This document shows positions 1,491 to 24,000 of a stretch of DNA of 24,000 nt, piece by piece (position 1 is the first letter of the stretch; each line of letters opens with the position of its first letter). Position numbers and translations under genes: made by a program. Source of the stretch: Mycoplasma elephantis ATCC 51980 (GTDB lineage: Bacteria > Bacillota_I > Bacilli_A > Mycoplasmatales > Metamycoplasmataceae); contig NZ_JHXU01000004.1 of the NCBI RefSeq assembly GCF_000687815.1, positions 28,366 to 52,365 on the forward strand. The letters are read 5' to 3'. The notes under the pieces are model-generated. The model saw only the letters and a program-made list of their open reading frames with translations, ran no database searches and was not told the DNA's origin.

Positions 1491-1517
1491 AAAAAAACAG
1501 CTAAATGCTGTTTTTTT
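1491..1517. terminator. bidirectional rho-independent terminator shared by two convergent genes
   Basis: aaaaaaacagc (1491-1501), loop taaat, gctgttttttt (1507-1517). An A-run and a T-run flank a GC-containing stem. It sits between the stop at 1486-1488 (+) and the stop at 1516-1518 (-). Confidence 0.7.
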
Positions 1518-4500
1518 ATTCTTTAATGAATTCTCCATTTTGTTTTGTTGTTTCATTATTTAGAAAAGGATAATATCCATATGCAGGTGTTTCCCTTCAT
1601 TTTCCATTTTGATTTTGACTTGTTGCATCCAATATAACTATTCCAGAAATTAGTGATTTAGTAACAGATATTCCTCTATATGAATAAGTTAAATTAACAT
1701 TTAATTGTCAGTTTAGCGATTTGTTGTCATTTCATCTTAATGTTACATCGCAACCACTTCTTCCAACTAAATTTGATCTAGTTCCAAACACAGGAAGATC
1801 TCCATCTTTTTTGAAGATTTCAGTATATTTAATTTTCTTATTATCAAATGAATCAAATTTTCTTGCCTCTAATGGAGCGTTATTGCGATATTTTTCACGC
1901 GTAAAACTTCAATCATTAAATGTTAATGTCATATCAGGTAATATTGTATTTTTAATATATGTAAATTCTAATGGTTGTGGCGCTTGATTTGGATATTTAT
2001 CAAAATGAAAGTGTAATCCATATTCTGCAAGAAATGGAGTTCAAAGTGGAATCTCCATTTTTGCATAACCGAACTCAGTACTTTCGAATACACGATCAAT
2101 TACTTTTTTAGGGTTTTCTGTTCCTATGGATTTAGTGATTTCATATGAAGTATATTTTTTACCATTTATAGTTTTGCTTATTGTATATGTTAATTCTAAA
2201 ATTCTATCATTATCTTTAGGGTTAGTTTTTATGATTTCTATTTTATAATCATTACTTACTTTAGAATTAGTTCTTTCATCATAATAAGTAATATCGCTTG
2301 TTTTAATTTCGCTAGGATCATTTACATGATACATATTTTGATAAAATTCACCATTATTTAATAATTTTAATTGAATAGATTCAGCCATATCATTAACATC
2401 TTTTTGACCGATGTTTATAAATCCACTAATTAATATTGTTTTATTTTGTATAACAGTGTCTAAACCAGTTCCCCGAGATACTTGAAATGTAATTGATTTT
2501 GTACCTTCGGTGTCATTGTTGCTATTTGTATCTTTTTTAACTAATATAGAAACTTTTTGTTCATTTATAATGTTGTCTCATGATTGATTTGTTAAATCTT
2601 TATCTATATTTTTGTAATTATTATCGTAGGAAACAATTGAAGGTAAAACATTTTTATATTGTGAAGTTTCGCCATCTTTTATGCTATCCAAAACCTTTTT
2701 GACAGCTTGTTCATTTTCATGTTTAGCTTTAGTCTTAAAACCATTCAAATAAATTTGTTTATTTATAGATACTTTATCAATACCTTCGCCAGTAGAAATT
2801 TTTAATGTAATAATTTTTTGTCCTAATTCATTATTATTTTGTGATTCTATTTCGAATTTTGCACCAATATCTTCAAATTTAGAAATTAGTAAATTAGAAT
2901 TATTAAGTAGGTTATTAATTGAATCGAATATAACATCTTCGGGTAATTTATTTTCATTGTTTGGAGTTGTAGTATATTCATTTTCAATTTGCGAAATAAT
3001 GTTATTAACTAAATTTTCATTAATTTGTTTTTTTGTTGTAAAATCAATAATTTTTATTGTTTTTTCAATTGATTTAGCATTATTTTTTGTTACTTGTAAT
3101 TTGATTTCTTTATAACCATCACTATTTATTTCATCACCTAAAATAGTTATATTTACTGATTTAGGCGCTTTTAAATAATCAAGTAATGATAAATCAATAT
3201 CATTTGCTAAAAGCTCAAAATTTCTAAAATAATTAAGTTCGCTTGATTGTTTAGATTTATTGTTTATTGTCTTGTAAGTTTCTTTAATATTTCCTAAAAC
3301 TTCATTAACATCATTTTCATCAGCTACATCTTGAGATGTTTTAAAATCACTTATGGTAATTGTGTGTTGTTTTTCAATGTTGTCCTTTTTAATATTGAGA
3401 ACAATTGATTTTGTGCCATCATTATCATTGTGTGTTTGAGATAGGATAGAAATAACTACGTCTTGTTTTGTTGCTAGAGTTGTTAAGTTTAAATTAGTAT
3501 CAAGATCTAAATTAGCTAAGTCGGAATAATTAATATTACTTGGTAAACTATTTTTATTATTTTTTGTTTCATTCATGCTTGAAATCATTTTAATGGTTTC
3601 GTCAACAATGTTTGAATTATTTTTTTCGGTTGTTAAGTATCCAGTAATAGTAATTTGAACAGTCGCTTCTCCAACTCCTTTTGTTATTTTAAGTTGTATT
3701 GTTTTAGAACCTATATCATTATTGCTTACAATATTATTCGTGTCTATGATTATGTTTGTATCCTCAATTATTAAGCTCTTTATATCAAAATTAATATCAT
3801 TATCTAATTGAGTAATGTTTAAGTATGAAACTAAATTAGGTAACTTATCTTTATGATTAATTGTTATTTTATCATTTGCTGAAATTGCTTCCAATTTGTT
3901 TTTTATTTCTTCGACTATCTTTTTGTCTTTTTTGTTTTGTTCATCTTGATTAAATGCTGCAGTTGTCTTAAATCCTGAAAGAACTATTTGAACATCTTTT
4001 GTAACTTTATTTTCATCAGTTCCTGTAGTTACTTCGATTACAAAAGTTTTAGAGCCATTATCATTGTTGTTTGTTTCCGATTTAATAGTAAGAGTCACAC
4101 CATATTTTTTAGATATGCTATTTGCGCCATCTACAAGATTTTGATTTGCTAAACACTTATCTATTTCCGAGATACCATTGATTAAACTTTTATAATCAAT
4201 ATCACTTGGTAATTTATCGTTAACATTAATCATTTTTTCTGATTTTATTTCACCAATTGCTTGATCAACTTTTTTGTGGTTTTCATCTAATTCTTTTGTT
4301 CTATAACCCGATAATTTTAGTGTTGCATTTTTATTTACATTACCTTTAATTAATTGTATGTTGAATAATTTAAATCCATCTCCATTTGTTACATCAATTA
4401 TATTAATTTGAGTTATTTTTTTCGTATCAATGAAATCTCTTTGAATATCTAATTCAATATCTTTATCTATTTCATTAAGTGAATTATAAGAAACAAATTC

Positions 4501-6819
4501 TGACGTTTTTTCTTTATTATTCAAGGTTTTTTGTTCTTTTAATAAATTTATTGTTTCTTCCAAAACAGCTAAATCTTTATGATCTTGTTCTGTTTGAAAA
4601 CCAATAACTTTTAATTCTATATTTTTAGATTGGTTATTACATTTAATTGTTACATTAATTATTTTTGTACCATCTTCATTGCTTGTGCTCGTAAATGAAA
4701 TATTGGTGTTTGTTTGATTTGCAATATTTTGTAAATCAAATGTTGTGTCTTCATCAAGTAACTTTAAATCAGAATTATAAGGATTATCAATGTACTCATT
4801 TAAATGATTTTTAGTTATAGATTCCTTATTTTTAGAAATTAATTCTATAGCTTTATCAACCATTTTTTCATCATATTTATTATTTGTTAAGTAGTTAATA
4901 ATTTTTACGTAATCTGAATTCACGATAACTTGATCATTATTATTTCCGCATCTTATTTCAAATTGGACTAATTTATATCCATCATTATTTTCTTCTTTAA
5001 TTAATTTTATCGATTCATTACTATTGATTTTTAATGTGTTATTTGGATCGTTAATTGAATCAATAAGTAATTTCATACCCCCATTAAAAACTACATCAGT
5101 TGATTTTAAATCCGAATTTTTGGTTACATATTCAGTTAAAATCCCTTGTTTAATTGCGTTTGCTCTTTGTTCATTATCATGTTTTGCTTTTGTTTTGAAG
5201 CCATAAATAGTGACTTTTTTAATTTCTGATTCTACTAATGTTGCACCAGTGCCCTTACTAATTTTTACATTAATAATTTTTTTGCCATCATTAGTATCTT
5301 CAAACAATGAAACATTAAGATTAACTTTGTGCGCATTTATCACTCTAAGGAAATTTATGCTCGTTCCATTATTGGTTAATAAATCTACGTCATTAACTAT
5401 TGTTTTAACATCATAATTATTTCAATTTACATCATTTGGAAGTTTATCTATTGTTTTAGTTATACCTTCAGTACTTAAATTGTTGAAAGCCAAGTCTACT
5501 TGTTCTTTATTAAATTGTTTTTCAGTTTTATATCCTTTAATTTTAAATGTATGAGTGCTATCAGTGGTGCTGCCACAAACAATTTTTAGGTTAATTGTTT
5601 TTTGCCCATTTACATCATCATTTGTTTCATAATTTGTTGGGTCAAAAACAAGTTTTACATTATATTTTTGTTCAATTTCCCTTAAATTTGCATCTATATC
5701 ATCATCGAACTCTTTGTATAATGTATATTTAACACTAGATGGAAGATAATTTTTGTTTTTTAATGTTATAAATGATTGTAATTCTTTTTTTGCATTGGTA
5801 ATTGCTTGTAATTCATTTTCTTTAATATATTGTAAATTAGTTTTAAAACCAGATAATGTAATTATCTTATCTTCAAAAGCATTGTTTTTTTTCACATGTA
5901 TTTTGATTTTTTTTGTACCATTTTCATCATCATTTTCAAATTTACCTGTTTCATTCAAATCAACAACATATATTTCTACATTATGTTCTTCCTTTAATTT
6001 TTTAATGTCTACATTAGGCAAATCTAAATCAATACTTTTTACATCATTGTATATAACAAGTGATGGTTTAAGATTTTGGTTATTTCCACTTATTGTGTCA
6101 TCATTTATTAACGACAATACTTTTCTAACAATTTCTAAATCTTTAGCATTATTATTGTAACCATTAATTGTGACTGTAATTTCACTTTTGGCAAGAGGAT
6201 CATCATTTTTAGCGATTATTAGAACTACCTCTTTAGTTCCTTTTTCGTCGTTATTTTTTGATTCACCAATTTTAGTTTTTCCGGTAATTATAATTTGAAA
6301 TTTATCTTCAATTTCTTTAAATGTTGACAAACCTTTATTTAATTCCATATCATTTTTGAATTTATCGAACTCTTTATAATTAAATTCACTTGGTAAAAGA
6401 GTTGAATATTGTTTAGTTTTTATACCAACTAAATAACTAGATACATCATTTTTGATTTTGTTAATATATTTTTGGTTTTCAGATTCTTCCTTTTTAAAAT
6501 CTGTTAATGTTTTTTCAAATTTGTATGATTTATTTCCTGATACAACTGTACCAAATACTTTTAATTCACCAGTTAAGTTGTTAGGTTCTAATTTATGAAT
6601 GGTGTATGTGGCGTTATTTGGAAAATTTGAAAAAAATAAATCATCTTCCTTGATGTCTGATGGTAGTTTTTGTTCCTTTTTGTCTATTGGTTTAAATTCA
6701 AGTAAATTAACATCTACATTTTGTGCTCTTTTTAAAAATAAATATGTAGTTGCTATAGCTGTTATTGTTAATGGCGCTATTAGCAAAAACCCTAATAATA
6801 TTTTTCTTTTCATTCTCAT
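1516..6819 (-). CDS. very large (1767 aa) membrane-anchored surface protein with 13 divergent tandem ~100-aa modules and a distinct C-terminal domain
   Basis: ORF-track pieces 5422..6819, 2578..5343 and 2041..2388 are all in one frame (distances divisible by 3). They are separated only by TGA (forward tca at 5422, 2578, 2041). I translated the linking segments and 1516..2040 by hand and found no TAA or TAG until 1516-1518. The N-terminus MRMKRKILLGFLLIAPLTITAIATTYLFL is a signal anchor without a lipobox Cys. Confidence 0.85.
2420..6410 (-). repeat. protein-level tandem domain array (13 recognisable modules) inside the large surface protein
   Basis: A recurring module reads (K)LPS-x-(I/V)-x-Y ... 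D-x-D ... N(D/N)(D/N)-G-(T/S)-K-x-I-x-(L/V)-x-(I/V) ... (I/L)-x-(I/L)-x-G-(F/Y)-(K/R/Q)-T. Module ends include INGYNNN, LSGFKTN, IKGYKTE, IYGFKTK, VIGFQTE, LSGYRTK, LSGFKTT, ITGYLTT, ISDFKTS, IIDFTTK, LNGFKTK and ISGFINI. The copies have diverged and I saw no nucleotide-level identity. Confidence 0.7.
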
Positions 6820-12166: not shown

Positions 12167-12190
12167 AAAAAGCAGATATCTGCTTTTTTA
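12165..12190. terminator. bidirectional terminator between convergent nrdE and crr-like genes
   Basis: aaaaaagcagat/atctgctttttt is a palindrome flanked by an A-run and a T-run. It overlaps both stop codons. Confidence 0.7.
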
Positions 12191-12679
12191 TTTACTCGCT
12201 TTAAACACTAAAGAATTATTTGTTATTTTTCCATATTTTATGCTTGATACTTTATTATATCTAGATTCAGGAATAACAACCATTATAACACCAGAAAAAT
12301 CAAGATGAGATTTTAAATACTTAAAATCAACACATAAAATAGGATTTTTCTTGGAAATTTGTTGATTTTTGTTGACTAATAGCTTAAAACCTTGCCCTTT
12401 TAAAATTGATGTTTTACTTCCTATATGCAAAAGAATATTCACGTTTTTTGATTCAATTACAATTGCATGATTTGTATCATTTATTGCAGCAATTTTTCCC
12501 GAAATAGGTGAACATATAGTTACATCATTCTCGTTTGGTTCTATAATTACTCCCTCTCCTAGATGTCCCTCACAAAAAACATTATCATTTAATGATTTTA
12601 ATGGCAAAACATCTCCATCACATGGAGAATAGATTTTTTTCTTAGCCTTAAATAAATTTAAAAATTCCTTCAATATCAT
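12188..12679 (-). CDS. crr: PTS EIIA component, glucose family (Crr-like), stand-alone
   Basis: 163 aa. It aligns by eye with E. coli Crr. Both catalytic-site histidines are retained: TNHAIVIES (compare TNHAFSIES) and LLHIGSKTSILKGQGF (compare FVHFGIDTVELKGEGF). Confidence 0.85.
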   Translation of the reverse strand: MILKEFLNLFKAKKKIYSPCDGDVLPLKSLNDNVFCEGHLGEGVIIEPNENDVTICSPISGKIAAINDTNHAIVIESKNVNILLHIGSKTSILKGQGFKLLVNKNQQISKKNPILCVDFKYLKSHLDFSGVIMVVIPESRYNKVSSIKYGKITNNSLVFKASK

Positions 12680-14250: not shown

Positions 14251-14389
14251 TTCCCACTCCTTCCCACTATCTATACATATTAAACCACAAATATCCAAAA
14301 TAATAATTTTTTTATCAAATTTTTTGAAAAATAATGTGGTTCAAAATCTCATTTCACCATTTTTTAAAATGAAAATTTATAATAATTTA

Positions 14390-15541
14390 ATGAAAATTAA
14401 AGAATTTCTTTCACTTTTTGCATTTATGCCAATAATATTTACAACTTCATGCACATATTTTTTCAAAGAAAAGGAAAAAAGTGAGCAAATACCTAATGCT
14501 CCAATTTCTTCAAAACCTACATCAAAACCATTAGTAATAAATAAAGATAATAGTGCTATAAAAATAGCCCACTGGAATGTAAAAAATCAAAATGGTAAAA
14601 ATAATTTTAAAAATATAGCTTTAACTAATATTATTAATGCCGAAAATTTTGATATTGTCGGATTAACGGAAATTGATGATTTGCTTGGCGTTGTGTCATT
14701 AATAGATATTTTAAATAAAGCCAATTTTGAATATAAATGAGAATACAAAATATCCAATAAAGACTATACAGCTATTAAAAAAGGAACTCAACTAGAAATG
14801 AATTCAAAACAAAGGGAACATGTTGGAATAATCTATAAAAGTAGTAAGGTTAAACTTATTGCGGATACATTATATGAAAACATTCCATGAAGTAATTTGT
14901 TAGATTTAAATAATCCTAGTGCCGATAAGTACTCATATATTCGTCCTCCATATGGAGCAAAGTTTTTAGACTTAAACACAAATCAAGATTTTACTTGTGT
15001 ATTTGCCCATTTTGATTCTCCGGGAATAGCGAAAGAAAATGAGGACGGTGCTAAAAAATTTAATAGTGATTTTGGAGATATGGGTGCACAAGAAGCTAAT
15101 GAAGCGCTCAAGATTAATGGTGTAATGAAATTTTATGATGCTTGAGATGGGGATAATAATGAACTAATTTTTATGGGTGATACAAATATAAAATTAGGAA
15201 AACAAAATTTAGTATTTAAAAATATTATTGATGATAAGTATACATTTTACTCTGAAGATAATGAACAATGGAAAACATCGCTTAAAACATCAGTTTTTGG
15301 TGAATATTCTCAACCTTATGACAAAATAATTTATAAAGGCGATGCAAAAATAACAAATCCAGGTTTGATAAAAATATATGATTCATTAAAAAATAAATAT
15401 ATAGATCAAAAATGGATTGATGAAGTAATAGCTAGTAAAAATCCCCCACCTAAAAACCCTGTTATTTACCCATATACATTTATTTCAGATCATTGTCCAA
15501 TTTATTTAACTATAAATTTAGATAAAAACGATAAAAATTAA
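14390..15541 (+). CDS. membrane nuclease lipoprotein, endonuclease/exonuclease/phosphatase (DNase I-like) family, MnuA-like
   Basis: The signal peptide plus lipobox reads MKIKEFLSLFAFMPIIFTTS|C. Four ORF-track pieces share one frame and are joined by TGAs at 14738, 14888 and 15143. EEP motifs are IAHWNV, IVGLTEI, FAHFDSPG, FMGDTNI and ISDHCPIY. Alternative starts lie at 14369 (ATG) and 14324 (TTG). Confidence 0.8.
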
Positions 15542-16876: not shown

Positions 16877-16953
16877 GGAGAAGTAGCTCAGTTTGGCAGA
16901 GCGCTACGTTTGGGACGTAGTGGTCGCAGGTTCAAATCCTGTCTTCTTCACCA
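16877..16953 (+). tRNA. tRNA-Pro (anticodon TGG)
   Basis: Acceptor GGAGAAG/CTTCTTC. Anticodon stem CTACG/CGTAG with loop TTTGGGA. T-loop GGTTCAAATCC. CCA is encoded. Confidence 0.9.
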
Positions 16954-16959
16954 TTTTAT

Positions 16960-17036
16960 GGGGGGGTAGCTCACCTGGCTAGAGCGCCTGCCTTGCACGC
17001 AGGAGGTAGAGGGTTCGAGTCCCTTCCTCTCCACCA
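16960..17036 (+). tRNA. tRNA-Ala (anticodon TGC)
   Basis: Anticodon stem CCTGC/GCAGG with loop CTTGCAC. The G3:U70 identity pair is present in acceptor GGGGGGG/CCTCTCC. T-loop GGTTCGAGTCC. CCA is encoded. Confidence 0.9.
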
Positions 17037-17039
17037 TTT

Positions 17040-17116
17040 GGCACTGTAGCTCAGTTGGTTAGAGCATCCGGTTCATACCCGGAAGGTCAAGAGTTCGATC
17101 CTCTTTGGTGCTACCA
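17040..17116 (+). tRNA. tRNA-Met, elongator (anticodon CAT)
   Basis: Anticodon stem TCCGG/CCGGA with loop TTCATAC. The 1:72 position is a G:U wobble pair rather than a mismatch, and the anticodon stem lacks the three consecutive G:C pairs of an initiator. Its position matches the Met slot of the known mollicute and Bacillus cluster order. Confidence 0.8.
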
Positions 17117-17138
17117 TTTGGATATATAACAGCATACT

Positions 17139-17214
17139 GGACCCATAGCTCAATGGTTAGAGCACCCGGCTCATAACCGGTAGGTTGCAGGTTCAAGTCC
17201 TGCTGGGTCCACCA
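17139..17214 (+). tRNA. tRNA-Ile2 (genomic anticodon CAT, presumed lysidine-modified)
   Basis: Acceptor GGACCCA/TGGGTCC with anticodon loop CTCATAA. The Ile rather than Met assignment rests on position in the conserved Pro-Ala-Met-Ile-Ser-fMet-Asp-Phe order, not on the sequence alone. Confidence 0.65.
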
Positions 17215-17215
17215 T

Positions 17216-17308
17216 GGGCAATTACCCAAGCCCGGTTGAAGGGACTAGTCTTGAAAACTAGCAGGGGCTTCACGGCCCGCGGGGGTTCGAATCCCTCATT
17301 GCCCGCCA
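17216..17308 (+). tRNA. tRNA-Ser (anticodon TGA), class II with long variable arm
   Basis: Acceptor GGGCAAT/ATTGCCC. Anticodon stem CTAGT/ACTAG with loop CTTGAAA. The long variable arm is GGGGCTTCACGGCCCGC. 93 nt with CCA encoded. Confidence 0.9.
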
Positions 17309-17344
17309 TTTATCTATTTTTATAGATACCAATAACTTTCACGT

Positions 17345-17421
<77 letters not shown>

Positions 17422-17422
17422 T

Positions 17423-17499
17423 GGTCCAGTGGTAAAGTGGTTTAATACGCCTCCCTGTCACGGAGGAGATCGCGGGTTCAATTCCCGTCTGGACCGCCA
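17423..17499 (+). tRNA. tRNA-Asp (anticodon GTC)
   Basis: Acceptor GGTCCAG/CTGGACC. Anticodon stem CCTCC/GGAGG with loop CTGTCAC. CCA is encoded. Confidence 0.9.
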
Positions 17500-17500
17500 T

Positions 17501-17576
17501 GGCTCTGTAGCTCAGTTGGTAGAGCAACGGACTGAAGCTCCGTGTGTCGCTGGTTCGATTCCTGCCGGAGCCACCA
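17501..17576 (+). tRNA. tRNA-Phe (anticodon GAA)
   Basis: Acceptor GGCTCTG/CGGAGCC. Anticodon stem ACGGA/TCCGT with loop CTGAAGC. T-loop GGTTCGATTCC. CCA is encoded. Confidence 0.9.
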
Positions 17577-17587
17577 TATGATGAAAA

Positions 17588-17650
17588 TCGCCTATTAAGG
17601 CTTTTTTTATAAAATTTACACTTTTCTTATTTTGAAGTGTAAATTTTTTT
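17588..17650 (+). terminator. tandem terminators after the tRNA cluster
   Basis: A small hairpin gcct-atta-aggc is followed by ttttttt (17590-17608). A strong 12-bp hairpin follows: aaatttacactt (17612-17623) pairs with aagtgtaaattt (17635-17646), then a T-run. Confidence 0.75.
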
Positions 17651-17750
17651 ACAATTTATTTTCTTTTTAACAATTTTGTTTACATTTTAATTACTATATA
17701 AATTTATAATTTATATGGTGGTAATAATACCACTAAATAAAGGAGATAAA

Positions 17751-19220
17751 ATGAAATACAAAAAATTATGCAGTGTTTTAATACCTGTAATATCTATTGG
17801 GATAACATCAAGTGTAATATCGTGTTCAATTGATGAAGAAGCAATTAAAAATTTTGAAAAAAATAATGAAGCTTTAATAAATGTTGATTTAGCCAAACTT
17901 GATAATGATATTTTAAAAAATCTCGAAAAAGCAGAAAATGAATATTTATCTTTGTCTAAAAATGAGCAAGATAATAAAAAAGATATTGGTGTTAAAATTC
18001 AAACTATTAAAGGAATTAAAAACTCACATGATTCATACTTAAAATCATATAAGAGTCTTTTAGAAATGGAAGATGAAAAACTTGAAAATGAATATAATGC
18101 ACGAGGTTACAAAATAGTTTATAAAGCAATTGAAGCTTTTGAAAAATTTAATAGCCTTGACGATAATACAAAAAATCTTTTAATTAAGAATTTACCTAAT
18201 TCATATTCAAGTATTAATGATGCTAAAAAGGATCTAGAAAGACGTGAAAATCTTTTAATTAATTTACAAAAAAAAGACTATCCAGTTAAAGTACCAAGTC
18301 AAGCAACATACAAAAAAATAAATGAACTTTTAGAATATGTAAAATCATTATCTGGTAAGACAATGGCGGAAAAGGTTGTTGCTATTTCAGAAAAATTCTT
18401 AGGATTTACTTATGTGCCAGATAAAATGATTGGTTCAATAGAAAAAGGGGTTGAAGAAATTCTTGTTCTTGATATATTGGGTGTTGACTGTTTTACCTTT
18501 TTAGATTATACTGTTGCCTTAGCAATGTCAAAAGATATTGATGAATTTAAAGAAAATGTTGCTAAAGTAAGATATATAGATGGACGTGTTGATTACACTA
18601 CTCGTAAACATTTCTTTACTGATTGAGGTCATGAAAATATTAAAATTGCAAATAATGCAGTTGATTTAATGGCTGAAGATGCTAAGAAAATAGCAAATGA
18701 CAAAAAATTGATTATTAATATTAAGAAAAATATTAATGCTAAAAAAGAAGTCGACAAGAAAGTAACAGAGTTTTGATTACCTGGAGTAAGAACAACAGAT
18801 CGTGAATTTGATGCAATTAAATTTGAAAAAGATCACAGAATACTAGATGAAAAATTCATTATGGATAACTTTAAAGAAGGTGATTTTGTAATGGTTGGAA
18901 CCAACCTAGATGGTCTCGATGTTACACATTGCGGAATTTTAATCTTTAAAGAGGGTCCGGTTTATGAATATGATGAAAATGGTGTTGAAAAACGTGATGA
19001 AAAAGGCAATCCAATAGTTAAAAAAGATAAAGATGGAAAAGAAGTAAAAGCTTTAAAACCATTTTATAGAAATGCTAAATGAAATAAACATGTTTTAGAT
19101 GTTGATTTACTATACTACATGCGTGATAGAAATTGAGATACAAAAAACAAGAAGTGATATGAAAAACCTAAAGTTCCATATATGTTATTCTACCGTGTAG
19201 AAGAATCATTAGATGATTAA
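17751..19220 (+). CDS. surface lipoprotein with a C-terminal AmiA/DUF1460-like (NlpC/P60-fold) putative N-acetylmuramoyl-L-alanine amidase domain
   Basis: The RBS aaaggag lies 5 nt upstream of the ATG. The lipoprotein signal is MKYKKLCSVLIPVISIGITSSVIS|C. The frame is continuous through TGAs at 18624, 18774, 19080, 19134 and 19155 to TAA at 19218-19220 (489 aa). The C-terminal half has LDILGVDCFTFLDYTVALA, VRYIDGRVDYTTRKHFFTDW and GDFVMVGTNLDGLDVTHCGI. As I recall them, these match the Cys and His blocks of PF07313. Confidence 0.6.
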
Positions 19221-20101
19221 TGAATATGATAAATAATAATATTACAGATTTAGATACAGAAAAAAGAAATAGAAATACAAAAAATTTATCTTCAAGTTCA
19301 ACATTAGAAATAATTGAAATGATAAATAATGAAGATAAAAAAGTTGCATATGAAGTAATTAAAAATAAAGAAAGTATAGCCAAAGTTATTGATATAGCAT
19401 ATGAATGCCTAAAAAATAAAAAAGGCAGAATTATTTATATAGGCGCGGGAACTAGTGGAAGAATAGGAGTACTAGATGCTACCGAAATTTGACCTACGTT
19501 TGGTGTAAAAAATAAAATTATAGGCCTTATAGCTGGTGGTAGAAAAGCTCTTTTTGAAGCAGTTGAAAAAGCTGAAGATAATATACAATTTGCAATTGAT
19601 GATTTAAATAGTGTAAATATTTCATCAAATGATGTAGTTATCGGAATTACTGCTTCAGGTAGAACACCTTATGTAATAGGTGGCCTAAAATATGCAAAAT
19701 CGATTGAGGCAAAAACAGTTCTTATATGTAATTCTATGCCTAGAGAAAAAAACAACTTTATAGATCAAATTATTTGTGTTTCAACAGGGGCTGAAGTAAT
19801 AGCGGGTTCTACAAGAATGAAAGCAGGGACTAGTCAAAAAATGGTATGCAATATGATTTCAAGTGCGGTGATGACAAAATTAGGTTATGTCGAAAGTAAT
19901 TATATGATTAATCTAATACCAACAAATTATAAACTTGAAGAACGTTGCAAAAACATGATTAAGGATTTAACTAATGCTTCTTATGACCAAATTGAAAATT
20001 GCTTCAATCTTACAAGGAATGTTAAATTAACACTTTTGATGTTACAAAAAAATATTTCAAAAGAAGAAGCGGAAAAAATTTATAAGGAGTTATATGGATA
20101 A
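19220..20101 (+). CDS. murQ: N-acetylmuramic acid 6-phosphate etherase MurQ
   Basis: 293 aa, with a TGA at 19490 read as Trp. It aligns by eye with E. coli MurQ over its whole length: STLE...IN.EDK.V, GR.IY.GAGTSGR.G.LDA.E, PT.GVK, GLIAGG, VE.AED, DVV.GI.ASGRTPYVI.GL.YA, GAEV..GS.RMKAGT.QK.V.NM.S. The start ATG overlaps the upstream stop (TAATG). Confidence 0.88.
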
Positions 20102-20405
20102 AACAAAAATTGAACAGTCGGCTTTTGAAATAATCTCATATTCAGGAGCAGCAAAGGCATTATTTTCTGAAGCAATAGATTATTTAATCAAAAATGATGT
20201 TGTAAAAGCTACTGAAAAAATTAAAGAGGGTAAAGAAGAATTAACAAAAGTTCATAAAGCACATTTTGAATTAATTTCATGCGAAGCTAAAGGAACCGAA
20301 CTTGATTTTAGTCTTTTATTAACCCATGCAGAAGATCAATTCATGTCAGCGGAAAACGCAATGTTTTTAGCTGAAAAAATGCTTTTATTTAAAAAAGCAA
20401 ATTAG
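20094..20405 (+). CDS. PTS EIIA component, lactose/cellobiose (Chb) family
   Basis: 103 aa in the three-helix-bundle EIIA pattern: IISYSGAAKAL, HKAHFELI, and the phosphorylation His in LLLTHAEDQFMS (compare ChbA LVHAQDHLMT). It overlaps the murQ 3' end by 8 nt (ATGGATAA). Confidence 0.85.
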   Translation: MDKTKIEQSAFEIISYSGAAKALFSEAIDYLIKNDVVKATEKIKEGKEELTKVHKAHFELISCEAKGTELDFSLLLTHAEDQFMSAENAMFLAEKMLLFKKAN

Positions 20406-21157
20406 TTATATGATGATGTTTGTAAATACTGAAAATTATCTTCATCATTAATTAAATACTCAAAAATTTTAATGTAAAATGTTACAACTTTAAGTAATGA
20501 ATCGGTCGAATAAAGTCTAAGACCACCCTTAAAATCTTTAACATTTTCAACATGATTAAAAACATTAATTTTATCTTTAATCACTTTATCATTTGGAATA
20601 AAACTACTTGATAACATAATTTTTGCCTTAGTAATTTTTATAAGATCAAGTATTCATGTGTGTTGAAGTGATAATGAGTTAATTATGACTAAATCATTAT
20701 TTGTTAGAAGCTTACTTAAACCAATTTGATCGTATTTACTTTCAGGAGTAAAAACACACTTATTTAATCTTTGTAGTTTACGGGCAAAATCTAAATTATT
20801 TATATATGAGCCTGAAACACCCACAAATAATATTTTGTGAGAATTTGAAATTAAATTAGCCGCATCTTTGATAACTTGATTATAAATATTGCCTTCATAT
20901 TCTTTAGATATTGATTGGTTATGAACAAAACAAAGTTCATTAAAGTTATTAAAATCACATTTTTTAACAAATTTAGAAATAGCGGCAGATGATACATTTA
21001 ATAACTGTGCCAAGTCTTTTGATTTATAAATCTTAGTTGAATTTTTTACTAATTTTAATATCTCATTAGCTATATGTGCATTTGTTATCGATGAATTTCT
21101 ACGAATTGCATTTAATTTCATTAAATATGTGTATTTACTATTATCAACATTTTTCAC
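20402..21157 (-). CDS. RpiR/MurR-family transcriptional regulator (HTH + SIS domains)
   Basis: Pieces 20654..21157 and 20402..20617 share one frame and are joined through TGA (forward tca 20654-20656). The N-terminal HTH is ITNAHIANEIL...KDLAQLLNVSSAAISKFVKKCDFNNFNEL, which resembles MurR. A SIS block KILFVGVSGSY follows. The longest ORF starts with GTG at 21157. The ATG at 21121 (MKLNAIRRN...) is an equally plausible start. Confidence 0.8.
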
Positions 21158-21193
21158 TTAAATATTATATTAAATAAAACGAAAGGAGTAAAT
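21158..21193. promoter_or_regulatory. very short divergent control region between the regulator gene and the PTS operon
   Basis: Only 36 nt separate the regulator GTG from the GTG of the first PTS-operon gene (72 nt if the regulator starts at 21121). The region contains tattatatt (-10-like) and the RBS aaaggag. No operator could be defined by eye. Confidence 0.3.
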
Positions 21194-21787
21194 GTGTTAA
21201 CCAAAAAATTTACAAAAGTGTTTTGATTATCTATGCTAGCAACAATTTTTATGATTGTTTCAATTTTATTGTTTGTTCCTAGTGTAATTTATGTTGGAAA
21301 ATCAAAGCAAATTCAACATTTTAACTTTGATAATATTAATTTTATTATCTTAGTTGCTATTCAAAATATATTTATTTTATTACTTTTAAAATATTTAATT
21401 ACAAATGCGATTAAAGATTTAAAAGATAAAACTTGAGCAAGTAACAAAGATACAAAACTCAAAACTATCATGTTTTATTTTGTATCATCTATTATTTTAT
21501 TATTAGTTATTGCATCAAGTGTATTTATTTCATTTGGAGTTGTGGTTTTTGAAGGGGATCTAAAACCATTAGGAACCATAACTACTGTTGATGGTAAAGA
21601 GGTTCATACAATCTTTTCAGATGAAGTAGTTAGAAACGCTATGACTGTAAATGATAAAATTAAATATATTTTATTTAGTTTTATATTTGCATACTTTTTA
21701 GTTATCTTTATATTACTTATAACAAAAATAAGTTTAGTAATAAAAAATACTGTAACAAACAAAAAACAAATAAAGGAAGCAATCTAA
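21194..21787 (+). CDS. uncharacterised 4-TM membrane protein, first gene of the PTS operon
   Basis: A GTG start lies 5 nt after the GGAG RBS. The ATG at 21192 hits a stop after two codons. Pieces 21233..21436 and 21470..21787 are in the same frame and are joined through the TGA at 21434. The 197-aa product has four hydrophobic segments. Its stop overlaps the EIIB start (TAATG). Confidence 0.65.
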
Positions 21788-22107
21788 TGAATGTTCTTTT
21801 AATTTGTTCTGGTGGAATGTCAACGCATATATTGATTAGTTCACTAGAAAAAGAAGCAAAGCAATTAGGAATACCTTTTAAAGCCAATGCTATTGGTGTT
21901 ACAGAAATTGAGGAATATCCAAATAATGATTACCAAATTATTTTGGTTGCCCCTCAAATTAGATTCAAGTTTATTGAGTTTGAAAAATTTGCAAAACAAA
22001 AAAACAAATTAATATATCAAATTCAACCAATGGAATACAATCCAGTAGGAGCATCAAAACTCCTTAAAAATGTAAAAAAAATTATGGAGGAAAACAATGT
22101 CATCTAA
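21787..22107 (+). CDS. PTS EIIB component, lactose/cellobiose (Chb) family
   Basis: 106 aa. The active-site Cys motif is MNVLLICSGGMSTHIL (compare ChbB LFCSAGMSTSLL). It also has ILVAPQIRF (compare LLGPQIAY). Confidence 0.88.
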   Translation: MNVLLICSGGMSTHILISSLEKEAKQLGIPFKANAIGVTEIEEYPNNDYQIILVAPQIRFKFIEFEKFAKQKNKLIYQIQPMEYNPVGASKLLKNVKKIMEENNVI

Positions 22108-23581
22108 CCAAAAGGTTAAAAAAACTAGTGTTGGTATGAATATTCTTAAATGAATTGAACGTACCTTTATGCCAATAATTAGTAAGATTAGTGATAACCG
22201 CTACATAAATGCTATTCGTAATGGTATGGTAGCCGTAATCCCTATATTGCTAATTGGTTCAATGTTTCTTATTTTATTTTTCTTCCCTATTGGAAAAAGT
22301 GAAACATTAGGAATTAATGTTTTACTACCAATTGATGGCGGTCGTTGAGCAAGATTCTTTATGTTACCATACCGTCTTACATTTCCAATGATGGGATTCT
22401 TTGTAGTTATAGGAATAGCTAGGTCTTTAGCTCGTAATTACAAACTAGATGATCAACAAGGCGTATTCATTGCTCTTATTGCTTATCTAATTTCAATAGT
22501 TGGTCCAACATATAGTTCAATTGGTAATCCTGCATTTACATCAGGTTCATTCGGGTCAGCAACTATTTTTGGCGGAATTATTGTTTCTATTATTTCAATT
22601 GAAATATTTAGATTATGTATTAAATATAGAATAATGATTCGTTTACCTAAATCTGTTCCAGAAGTTGTTGCAAAACCATTTAATGCAATTATTCCAATGC
22701 TTTTTGTAATGGTTCCTGCAGTTCTTTTATTTAATGTATTAAAATTCGATATTCACAAATTTGCATCATTATTATTACAACCAATCCAAGGATTAGTTGC
22801 TGGAAATAACTTTTTTGGCTTTATAGTTGTAATATTATTTGTTATGTTATTATGAATTGCTGGTATTCATGGAATGGCAATAGTTGGTGCTGTTGCTCGT
22901 CCATTTTGACTTATCGCTATTGATGATAACTTATCATTAACTGAAACACTTGGTAGAAAATCAATAACAGCTGCTGATGGAGCTAATATTTTGGTGGAAC
23001 CATTCTTTCAATGATTTGTTTGAATCGGTGGAGCTGGAGCTACATTAGGTCTTTTAATTGTTATGTTATTTATTGCTAAATCAAAATACATAAGAGCTAT
23101 TACATATCCTTCTATTGTTCCAGGTATATTCAACATAAATGAACCAGTTATATTTGGTTACCCACTTGTTTTAAATCCTATTTTAGCAATTCCTGCCATT
23201 TTAGCCCCTCTTACAATGGGTACATTATCATTTATTGCAATGAAACTTAATTTAGTAAATGTACCTATTATAGTTGTTGGGTGAACATTACCTTCACCAG
23301 TTGGTGCGGTGCTTGCAACGAATTTAGATTGAAGAGCATTAGTTCTTTGTTTATTAATGATCGCTGTATCATGCGTAATATGATGGCCATTTGCTAAAAT
23401 GTATGATAATGTATTATTAAAACAAGAAATCGAAGAAGAAGTTCAATTACGTAAAGAAAACGCAGAAAAAGAAAATATCATCTTTAATGAAGAAGAAACA
23501 AGAGCACAAGTTTCAAAAGAATTCCATTCAAGAAGTATTTTTAAACGTAATAAAAAACAAGTAAAAAACATAGAAGCTTAA
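22097..23581 (+). CDS. PTS EIIC permease, lactose/cellobiose (Chb) family
   Basis: The ATG at 22097 follows the ggagg RBS and overlaps the EIIB gene by 11 nt. A single frame runs through nine TGA codons and joins pieces 22361.., 23063.. and 23399.. (494 aa). Features are multiple TM segments, the LWIAGIHG motif typical of this EIIC family, and a charged C-terminal tail. Confidence 0.88.
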
Positions 23582-23598
23582 AAAAACAGAAAGGGAAC

Positions 23599-23931
23599 AT
23601 GCCAGAATGATTAGTATATAGTTTATTAGTATTAACCTTGATAATTGGATATTTGTTAGCAACACTTATTGATCGATACACAAAGTTTTTTAAAAGAATA
23701 AGTTCGTGAATTATTGTTCCATTACCTTTTATAGTTTTGTTTTTGATAGGTATACCCCTATTATTATTTAAGGTTGATTTTGATATTATATTTTACTGTT
23801 GTTCTTTCCCCTTTTTGTTTTTTTGTGGCGTATCTATAGCTGTATATATCGAAAGATATATTATTTGAAGAGAACGCAAGCTTGAAAAAGCAAAAATAGC
23901 ACAAGGTGTGCAAAATAAAGATAAAAAATAA
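23599..23931 (+). CDS. uncharacterised small 3-TM membrane protein
   Basis: An ATG follows the aaaggga RBS. The frame is continuous with TGAs at 23608, 23707 and 23866 read as Trp. The 110-aa product is MPEWLVYSLLVLTLIIGYLLATLIDRY...IIVPLPFIVLFLIGIPLLLF...FYCCSFPFLFFCGVSIAVYI, followed by a basic tail. The standard-code ORF track misses it. Confidence 0.55.
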
Positions 23932-23945
23932 CGAAAGGAATTTAA

Positions 23946-24000
23946 ATGCTAGGTATTTCAATTTATCCTGATAAACAGGATAAACAAGAAATTATAAAAT
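23946..24000 (+). CDS. 5' end of a DUF871/MupG-like (6-phospho-N-acetylmuramidase family) gene, cut by the window edge
   Basis: The RBS gaaagga precedes an ATG at 23946. Only 18 codons are visible: MLGISIYPDKQDKQEIIK. The N-terminal (M)LGIS(I/V)Y(P/L) pattern is what I recall for DUF871 proteins. The call is tentative because of the short length. Confidence 0.35.
   Translation, partial: MLGISIYPDKQDKQEIIK

Follow-up and report, generated by a model that had tools for sequence, protein, structure and literature searches.

A conserved locus of Mycoplasma elephantis with a putative role in scavenging peptidoglycan fragments

The wall-less bacterium Spiroplasma has been described as using N-acetylmuramic acid (MurNAc) via murP, murQ, nagA and nagB, with host bacteria suggested as its source, in publications of 2013 (Lo et al., PMC3762197) and 2025 (PMC12453411). 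Here we analyze a differently composed locus in another wall-less mollicute, Mycoplasma (Mycoplasmopsis) elephantis ATCC 51980, a mycoplasma of elephants. The locus begins in a 24,000-nucleotide stretch of contig NZ_JHXU01000004.1 (positions 28,366 to 52,365; hereafter the window). It encodes an AmiA-like surface lipoprotein, the MurNAc 6-phosphate (MurNAc-6P) etherase MurQ, a lactose/cellobiose (Lac/Cel)-family phosphotransferase system (PTS) composed of EIIA, EIIB and EIIC, two small membrane proteins, an RpiR/MurR-like regulator, a GH170-family glycosidase and the kinase AnmK. Because MurNAc catabolism through murP and murQ in mollicutes has been in print since 2013, the headline idea is not new and the locus introduces no new principle. 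Of what an earlier annotation, made by a model from the letters of the window and termed here the sequence-only reading, had put forward as distinctive, it is the composition that stands: the combination of a Lac/Cel PTS, an amidase, GH170 and AnmK is unlike that of the described mur loci.

The individual steps have precedents in walled bacteria. Staphylococcus aureus imports a peptide-free peptidoglycan disaccharide that an amidase and a glycosidase generate extracellularly, and its MupG, the sole biochemically characterised GH170 enzyme, cleaves MurNAc-6P-N-acetylglucosamine (MurNAc-6P-GlcNAc) and is encoded in an operon with murQ; the GH170 family comprises clades of probably different specificity (PMC6262408). 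In Escherichia coli the muropeptide enters whole via AmpG and is cut down in the cytoplasm by NagZ and by AmpD, a zinc amidase, after which AnmK converts 1,6-anhydroMurNAc (anhMurNAc) to MurNAc-6P and MurQ converts that to GlcNAc 6-phosphate (GlcNAc-6P) together with D-lactate (PMC5061867). The characterised DUF1460 protein, AmiA of Bacteroides uniformis, splits GlcNAc-1,6-anhMurNAc-peptide into GlcNAc-anhMurNAc and the stem peptide, according to PMC4600125. Lac/Cel-family PTSs phosphorylate the non-reducing sugar of beta-linked disaccharides, and in Lacticaseibacillus paracasei the GH170 protein ChbE, which works with a cellobiose-type PTS, is genetically required for chitobiose use and inferred to be a 6-phospho-beta-N-acetylglucosaminidase that releases GlcNAc-6P (PMC12791066).

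Our analysis indicates that the M. elephantis locus very probably handles MurNAc-containing peptidoglycan fragments. The reading that we favor, with somewhat better than even confidence, is of a functional system for the capture and breakdown of fragments shed by other bacteria, best understood as anhydromuropeptide scavenging. We give about an even chance to the specific anhydro route set out below, in which the phosphate is placed on GlcNAc. We propose more tentatively still that anhydromuropeptides of the tracheal-cytotoxin type, shed by nearby bacteria, serve as food for animal mycoplasmas (genus Mycoplasmopsis) by a pathway logic (amidase, PTS, GH170, AnmK, MurQ) undescribed in any organism, the core of which would be common to these mycoplasmas and to uncharacterised clusters of Bacillaceae and Clostridium.

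Gene products and conservation of the locus

The product of the second gene of the locus is a MurQ etherase with predicted activity on MurNAc-6P. It passed two MurQ family models (NF003915, 338.9 bits against a cut-off of 168; NF009222, 295.4 against 255), narrowly missed the TIGR00274 equivalog (298.4 against 302) and aligned with the solved structures 4s12, 4lzj and 1nri at ~217-220 bits. DATE lies opposite DASE, and VEKAED opposite VEGAED, in these alignments and both catalytic glutamates, equivalent to E. coli Glu83 (DATE) and Glu114 (AED), are present.

The remaining two cytoplasmic enzymes lie at or beyond the end of the window. A M. elephantis contig (L086) matches the last 246 bases of the window exactly and then runs on, so that the locus extends ~2.2 kb further through a complete GH170 gene (361 aa) and an overlapping, intact AnmK gene (377 aa). 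The window holds only 18 GH170 codons, and the family scores are those of the full gene on the overlapping contig, namely 305.7 bits for MupG_N and 123.4 bits for MupG_C, which together cover its full length. The GH170 protein scored 367 bits against PDB 1x7f, an uncharacterised Bacillus cereus structure, and only 77 bits against Enterococcus faecalis 2p0o. AnmK passed its equivalog (NF007148, 441.7 against a cut-off of 387) and matched PF03702 at 342 bits, and its FDNGPG catalytic-Asp motif aligns with FDTGPG of levoglucosan kinase.

The lipoprotein encoded by the first gene is identical to the M. elephantis protein at NCBI. It matched PF07313 (AmiA-like) at 127.9 bits (cut-off 27; E = 4.7e-37), and its signal peptide ends in the lipobox VISC, so the amidase should be surface-located. 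When the mycoplasma proteins were searched as a profile, B. uniformis AmiA (4h4j/4q5k/4q68) was matched with E = 3e-42, and its catalytic Cys and His fell opposite those of the motifs DCFTFLDY and LDVTHCG. C247 and the first His, H393, are invariant. In the AlphaFold model (mean predicted local distance difference test score, pLDDT, 76) Foldseek matched DUF1460 structures only, with probability 1.00. Together, these matches predict that the C-terminal domain is an AmiA-like (DUF1460, NlpC/P60-type) N-acetylmuramoyl-L-alanine amidase domain. The N-terminal domain (residues 29-176; window 17751-18280) is modelled with confidence as all-helical (pLDDT ~88), had no fold match in PDB and is confined to the long lipoprotein forms of M. 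elephantis and Mycoplasmopsis californica.

The association of this amidase with catabolic genes appears to be specific to mycoplasmas. This is because, for the 80 AmiA-like loci that a contig scan with the AmiA-like alignment returned, all of them non-mollicute (Nocardia, Pseudomonas, Bartonella and others), no MurQ, AnmK, GH170 or Lac-family EIIC lay within 10 kb. Two AmiA-like domains are also found, along with MucBP repeats, in a secreted 716-aa protein of Erysipelothrix inopinata (L069, 9914-12064), a hit that was set aside, its gene not being linked to murQ or a Lac-family PTS. In M. gallinacea, the last ~60 residues of the lipoprotein (L088, 5041-6111) diverge fully from the conserved YRNA...VPGILVYR ending; judging from this sequence, the M. 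gallinacea amidase may be frameshifted, with loss of its third catalytic residue.

The transporter belongs to the Lac/Cel family, and the M. elephantis locus has no PF00367/MurP-type (glucose-family EIIBC) gene. EIIA matched PF02255 at 88 bits, with the phospho-His present, and EIIB matched PF02302 at 48 bits, with Cys7 as the phospho-Cys. EIIC matched PF02378 at 168 bits and exceeded the TIGR00410 cut-off (294 against 236), and fell below the equivalogs for particular sugars (cellobiose, 294 against 434; lactose, 200 against 614; chitobiose, 157 against 760).

The two membrane proteins of the locus have four hydrophobic spans (ORF 21194-21787) and three (ORF 23599-23931) by hydropathy and are referred to as the 4-TM (four-transmembrane-segment) and 3-TM proteins. 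Neither matched an entry in Pfam or NCBIfam, and no relatives of these conserved proteins were detected beyond the loci described here with Pfam, NCBIfam and hhalign. The 4-TM protein occupies the same position in all six Mycoplasmopsis loci.

Translation of the window with genetic code 4 reproduced the nine open reading frames (ORFs) of the sequence-only reading, including their coordinates, overlaps and TGA counts, and bore out its layout of two operons around a single regulator (Table 1). Family models agreed with its AmiA/DUF1460-like, MurQ, EIIA, EIIB, EIIC and DUF871/MupG-like assignments, and the regulator came only just below threshold. The genes are tightly packed, with TAATG overlaps between the lipoprotein gene and murQ and between the genes for the 4-TM protein and EIIB, an 8-nt overlap between murQ and the EIIA gene and one of 11 nt between the EIIB and EIIC genes. 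The regulator gene is convergent with the EIIA gene and divergent from the second operon, and an AAGGAG motif stands 6 nt 5' of the lipoprotein ATG. In gene order from the lipoprotein through the 3-TM protein, the ORFs contain 5, 1, 0, 1, 2, 0, 9 and 3 in-frame TGA codons. Seven of the nine in EIIC, and the only one in the GH170 gene, align with Trp of Firmicutes homologues, and on this alignment evidence TGA is a tryptophan codon in M. elephantis.

Table 1. Genes of the locus and candidate operators in the 24,000-nt window
Feature	Position	Strand	Basis or remarks
Surface lipoprotein, AmiA-like, 489 aa	17751..19220	+	PF07313, profile search, AlphaFold model
MurQ, N-acetylmuramic acid 6-phosphate etherase (predicted activity), 293 aa	19220..20101	+	NF003915, NF009222
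PTS EIIA, lactose/cellobiose family, 103 aa	20094..20405	+	PF02255; HAEDQ phospho-His motif
RpiR/MurR-like regulator, HTH (helix-turn-helix) + SIS, 251 aa from GTG start	20402..21157	-	Sub-threshold HTH_6 and SIS
Conserved 4-TM membrane protein, 197 aa, GTG start	21194..21787	+	Hydropathy
PTS EIIB, lactose/cellobiose family, 106 aa	21787..22107	+	PF02302; LLICSGGMST motif with phospho-Cys
PTS EIIC, lactose/cellobiose family, 494 aa	22097..23581	+	PF02378, TIGR00410
Conserved 3-TM membrane protein, 110 aa	23599..23931	+	Hydropathy
Start of GH170 (DUF871/MupG-family) 6-phosphoglycosidase, first 18 codons, MLGISIYPDKQDKQEIIK	23946..24000	+	Full gene on overlapping contig
Palindrome TGTAAATTTTTTTACA (TGTAAA-N4-TTTACA), candidate operator (low confidence)	17638..17653		~100 nt 5' of lipoprotein gene
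Palindrome GGTGGTAATAATACCAC, candidate operator or hairpin of the 5' untranslated region	17717..17733		Just 5' of ribosome-binding site

Comparison of synteny across mollicute genomes, which had been proposed as a check, revealed the same structural order (AmiA-like, MurQ, EIIA, 4-TM, EIIB, EIIC, 3-TM, GH170, AnmK) in at least five further Mycoplasmopsis species: M. californica, M. lipofaciens, M. hafezii, M. gallinacea and Mycoplasma sp. NEAQ87857. The regulator alone shifts, being inside the cluster in M. elephantis and M. californica and flanking it in the others. All six loci have AnmK as their sole sugar kinase. In NEAQ87857 a regulator-nagA-nagB unit (L094, 2383-4995) is divergent from the operon that runs from the AmiA-like gene to AnmK, the sole instance among the loci seen in which GlcNAc-6P catabolism genes are physically attached. 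This arrangement ties the operon directly to GlcNAc-6P catabolism and supports the earlier proposal that the locus scavenges foreign peptidoglycan fragments. Close GH170 homologues were also found in M. ciconiae and Mycoplasma sp. Ms02. A comparative paper (PMC11720521) mentions in passing an AnmK gene on a putative 17-kb plasmid of M. columborale and does not discuss what it does; this suggests that the locus may be mobile among avian mycoplasmas.

The chromosomal site of the locus is common to M. elephantis and its sister species M. californica and differs in the other species. Locus proteins of these two species are 56-82% identical, with ratios of nonsynonymous to synonymous substitution rates (dN/dS) of 0.07-0.29 (0.25 for the 4-TM protein) that are rough, as synonymous sites are saturated, although their direction is clear. 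Both ranges are those of obg, nrdE, nrdF and rsmH. Judged from these comparisons, the locus is under strong purifying selection. In a neighbor-joining tree of GH170 (constructed without support values), the Mycoplasmopsis proteins form one clade, adjacent to those of other mollicute metagenome-assembled genomes (MAGs), then Erysipelotrichia, then Bacilli and Clostridia. A recent horizontal import was considered and rejected on the evidence of the site shared with the sister species, TGA at conserved Trp positions, a host-like G+C content (27% for the window) and the monophyly of the Mycoplasmopsis GH170 proteins, in agreement with the adaptation to code 4 noted in the sequence-only reading. 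The sequence comparisons indicate that the locus is old in the Mycoplasmopsis lineage and selectively maintained.

Walled Firmicutes have related gene clusters. Outside the mollicutes, the nearest GH170 proteins share 55-58% identity with that of M. elephantis, and in Caldibacillus debilis, Virgibacillus and Clostridium sp. MB40-C1 the GH170 gene is accompanied by a Lac/Cel-type PTS, GH4, MurQ, a sugar kinase of the BadF type and a small membrane ORF. Two of these clusters also have AnmK, and that of Caldibacillus has an RpiR regulator. Six M. elephantis components have homologues in these clusters at 35-56% identity, the regulator being at 23%. EIIB is 37% identical to EIIB of the Caldibacillus cluster. 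Each cluster (L089, L090, L091) also contains an unannotated ORF of 97-103 aa, probably with three transmembrane segments, adjoining the PTS or GH4 genes. These ORFs resemble the mycoplasma 3-TM protein in size and topology and not in sequence, and hhalign found no similarity between the 3-TM family and these ~100-aa membrane ORFs.

A proposed scavenging route and its rivals

We hypothesize that the likely substrates of the locus are GlcNAc-1,6-anhydroMurNAc-peptides, the products of lytic transglycosylases. The surface lipoprotein would strip off the stem peptide outside the cell to leave GlcNAc-beta-1,4-anhMurNAc, and the PTS, fed by enzyme I (EI) and HPr, would import this chitobiose-like disaccharide and phosphorylate O6 of its non-reducing GlcNAc; O6 of anhMurNAc is tied up in the anhydro ring. 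GH170 would then split GlcNAc-6P-anhMurNAc into GlcNAc-6P and anhMurNAc, AnmK would convert anhMurNAc to MurNAc-6P and MurQ would convert MurNAc-6P to a second GlcNAc-6P and D-lactate. In relatives, NagA and NagB would pass GlcNAc-6P to glycolysis. Repression of both operons presumably falls to the RpiR/MurR-like protein and would be lifted once a phosphosugar, for example MurNAc-6P, builds up, and the 4-TM and 3-TM proteins would be conserved parts of the system. We infer all five steps from the gene set and the literature; on this scheme every catalytic gene would be used and none would be missing from the operon.

The placement of the phosphate was weighed against a route like that of S. 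aureus, close to the phospho-muramidase cleavage of the sequence-only reading. There, the amidase would free a reducing disaccharide (MurNAc-GlcNAc via a glucosaminidase, or GlcNAc-MurNAc), the PTS would phosphorylate MurNAc, GH170 would act as a 6-phospho-N-acetylmuramidase that yields MurNAc-6P and GlcNAc, and MurQ would act last. Such a route has the activity of MupG itself as its precedent, Pfam names both GH170 domains MupG, and the BadF-type kinase of the Firmicutes clusters could be the GlcNAc kinase that it requires. No such kinase was found in the mycoplasma loci, however, and the scheme leaves no role for AnmK, which is present in 6/6 of them. The S. aureus step also uses a glucose-family MurP and not a Lac/Cel-family PTS (PMC6262408), and GlcNAc-anhMurNAc, the product of the characterised AmiA, is of the wrong polarity and lacks a free MurNAc O6. 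Moreover, a close GH170 homologue occurs with NagA and NagB and without MurQ in the 21 kb read. It is in a Mycoplasmoidaceae MAG (L093, 9342-17481), where EIIB, EIIA, GH170, EIIC, HPr, NagB and NagA are encoded together with small membrane ORFs, and its GH170 is 53% identical to that of M. elephantis; a GH170 that releases MurNAc-6P would seem pointless there. Overall, the genomic context argues for a GlcNAc-6P-releasing GH170. Because the locus ends in AnmK, and given the AmiA product and the precedent of GH170 with a cellobiose-type PTS, we prefer the anhydro-disaccharide route with the phosphate on GlcNAc and regard the S. aureus-like route as unlikely, at roughly one chance in four.

The same MAG bears on a second alternative, in which the PTS and GH170 form a system for chitobiose or host glycans (GlcNAc-beta-1,4-GlcNAc), and MurQ, AnmK and the AmiA-like protein are add-ons for MurNAc or anhMurNAc that enter the cell otherwise. 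The MAG locus looks like such a chitobiose-type system on its gene content, and no MurQ, AnmK or amidase was found in the 21 kb read; in addition, L. paracasei pairs a cellobiose-type PTS with GH170 for chitobiose (PMC12791066), and EIIC of M. elephantis passes no sugar-specific equivalog. Against this, the PTS genes are intermixed with five genes that are specific to peptidoglycan or compatible with it, in a fixed order, in one or two operons, in six species, and the locus is without another transporter. The M. elephantis EIIC is also nearer to the EIICs of the Firmicutes (Bacillaceae) clusters with MurQ, at 37% identity, than to that of the MurQ-less mollicute locus, at 26%. We consider this alternative improbable, at little more than one chance in ten.

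Several points weigh against the anhydromuropeptide route that we prefer. In structural alignment, identity between the AmiA-like domain and B. uniformis AmiA amounts to no more than 18-19%. The catalytic triad of the AmiA family is Cys-His-His (PMC10318531). An Asn (YRNA) aligns with the third of these residues in 6/6 Mycoplasmopsis proteins, and because of this substitution and the low identity, anhydro specificity is not transferable by homology. Cys-His-Asn is a workable papain-type triad, and the variant in the mycoplasma amidase is plausibly papain-like and active, judging by its sequence. We know of no PTS that imports GlcNAc-anhMurNAc. The specificity of GH170 is not readable from sequence (cf. 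PMC6262408), which leaves room for the S. aureus-like route, and the BadF-type kinase of the Firmicutes clusters is compatible with either polarity of the disaccharide. The candidate operators in Table 1 are not statistically significant, the chance expectation for TGTAAA-N4-TTTACA being 0.5 per window at up to one mismatch. The M. californica anmK gene (~17.5-18.7 kb, L002/L003) contains one frameshift (tblastn leaves frame 3 for frame 1 around residues 59-76), in a stretch where two assemblies are identical; the remainder is free of stops and 70% identical to M. elephantis AnmK. Together with the possible truncation of the M. gallinacea amidase, this indicates that some lineages are in the course of losing the pathway.

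What becomes of GlcNAc-6P in M. elephantis and M. californica is a further difficulty. In a search with the NEAQ87857 NagA as query, for which 120 of 209 matches are listed, NagA was named in more than 20 Mycoplasmopsis species among the matches listed, including M. hafezii, M. gallinacea, M. lipofaciens and M. ciconiae and, in all, four further carriers of the locus, and neither M. elephantis nor M. californica was among the organism-named matches listed. We give this negative result moderate weight. The sequence-only reading had described the route as complete; this stands for the genes of the locus, which are present, and not for NagA, which was not recovered for M. elephantis among the named matches listed. 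The M. elephantis/M. californica lineage may lack NagA, and the pay-off of the pathway could be D-lactate or a precursor of UDP-GlcNAc rather than glycolytic carbon.

These gaps, as well as a GH170 tree that is compatible with old vertical descent, would fit a decaying relic of the wall recycling of a walled Firmicutes ancestor, functionless in M. elephantis, but we find this very improbable, since every locus gene is intact in M. elephantis, dN/dS and identities are on par with those of housekeeping genes, and the joining of the amidase to the operon, seen in none of the 80 other AmiA-like loci, appears to be a mollicute innovation.

Regulator, candidate operators and flanking genes

The regulator scored slightly under threshold for both of its domains (HTH_6, 26.8 against 28.3; SIS, 24.5 against 25), and reached ~21 bits against MurR equivalogs with cut-offs above 350. 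Its match to the RpiR regulator of the Caldibacillus cluster had E = 6e-5. Its orthologues are beside or inside the operon in 6/6 species examined.

The palindrome TGTAAATTTTTTTACA is the sole match to its pattern in the window, and M. californica has the pattern, without mismatch, at the orthologous position. The pattern is absent from the 36-nt spacer between the regulator gene and the gene for the 4-TM protein, and nothing comparable was found in that spacer. In M. lipofaciens, M. gallinacea and NEAQ87857, similar motifs of the AAAATATTTTACA type lie upstream of the operon. For GGTGGTAATAATACCAC, the M. californica counterpart at the same relative place is AGTGGTATTAATACCAC. An Rfam scan of the window returned tRNAs only, and a promoter and terminator scan returned no more sites than in shuffled sequence.

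Eight clustered genes for tRNAs (Pro, Ala, Met, Met, Ser, Met, Asp, Phe; window 16877-17576) lie directly 5' of the locus, and the spacing from obg to the lipoprotein gene in M. californica equals that in M. elephantis. On the 3' side, thymidine kinase and PTS enzyme I are encoded within three genes of AnmK on the M. elephantis contig. Elsewhere in the window, a gene for a glucose-family EIIA (Crr-like) lies between nrdE and rsmH (12188-12679, minus strand); it is annotated as 119 aa in one M. californica assembly, against 159 aa. The product of window 1516-6819 (minus strand) is 1767 aa long, carries a signal or anchor sequence and is made of many similar modules of ~100 aa in which motifs of the kind NDDNGTK...I.L.I.KG.... 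recur; presumably it is a variable surface protein. A 390-aa lipoprotein without a Pfam entry (14369-15541, plus strand) resembles by eye a membrane nuclease of the endonuclease/exonuclease/phosphatase type and ends in ...SDHCPIYL.

Comparison with known systems

Our literature search found no description of the Mycoplasmopsis locus, of the amidase-PTS-GH170-AnmK composition or of a PTS route for GlcNAc-(anh)MurNAc, and the individual locus genes are already named in the NCBI annotation. If our reading is true, wall-less pathogens and commensals of mammals and birds would cross-feed on the cell-wall turnover products of the microbiota, and a first physiological role would be provided for the 1x7f-type GH170 and the Lac/Cel-type PTS found near murQ and anmK in many Firmicutes. 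The surface amidase would possibly also lower the local level of immunostimulatory muropeptides, with the clearance of NOD1/NOD2-stimulating fragments from the mucosal surface as a side effect. This would be mildly surprising to mycoplasma specialists, for whom the locus also offers a simple, testable growth substrate for fastidious mycoplasmas. For the cell-wall-recycling field it would be a testable hypothesis that also covers the uncharacterised Firmicutes clusters.

Spiroplasma is the nearest parallel in being a wall-less mollicute with MurQ and a PTS for a peptidoglycan sugar that it does not make itself. Its transporter is the glucose-family MurP and its substrate the MurNAc monosaccharide, and the papers name murP, murQ, nagA and nagB only, with no amidase, GH170 or AnmK; M. 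elephantis differs in its Lac/Cel PTS, surface amidase, GH170, AnmK and two membrane proteins. The mupG-murQ-murP-murR locus of S. aureus (Kluj et al. 2018, PMC6262408) likewise combines GH170, MurQ, a PTS and an RpiR-type regulator. Unlike M. elephantis, S. aureus uses the glucose-family MurP for MurNAc-GlcNAc and is without AnmK, and the gene for its amidase, the autolysin Atl, lies elsewhere. In the structure comparison above, GH170 of M. elephantis sides with 1x7f, far from 2p0o.

The AmpG-NagZ-AmpD-AnmK-MurQ pathway of E. coli (PMC5061867) shares with the proposed route its substrate class and the final AnmK and MurQ steps. In contrast to that recycling system, M. elephantis would act as a scavenger, with a cysteine amidase outside the cell, entry through a PTS and a phosphoglycosidase in place of NagZ. 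The periplasmic AmiA of Bacteroides (Xu et al. 2014, via PMC4600125) is of the same fold and family as the lipoprotein, has the catalytic Cys and His and acts on turnover products outside the cytoplasm. The lipoprotein differs from it in its low identity and the Asn for the third His, in being lipid-anchored, in its extra helical domain and in its place in a catabolic operon.

The chb cluster of L. paracasei (PMC12791066) resembles the M. elephantis locus in pairing a Lac/Cel PTS with GH170, with NagA required downstream in L. paracasei. Its substrate is chitobiose, it lacks MurQ, AnmK and an amidase, and its accessory protein is a soluble DUF3284 protein, whereas M. elephantis has small membrane proteins. 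The clusters of Bacillaceae and Clostridium share with M. elephantis the Lac/Cel-type PTS, a 1x7f-type GH170, MurQ, a small membrane ORF and, in some cases, AnmK or RpiR. They differ in having GH4 and the BadF-type kinase, and in having no AmiA-like lipoprotein. Moreover, their hosts are walled and able to recycle their own wall, whereas M. elephantis is wall-less.

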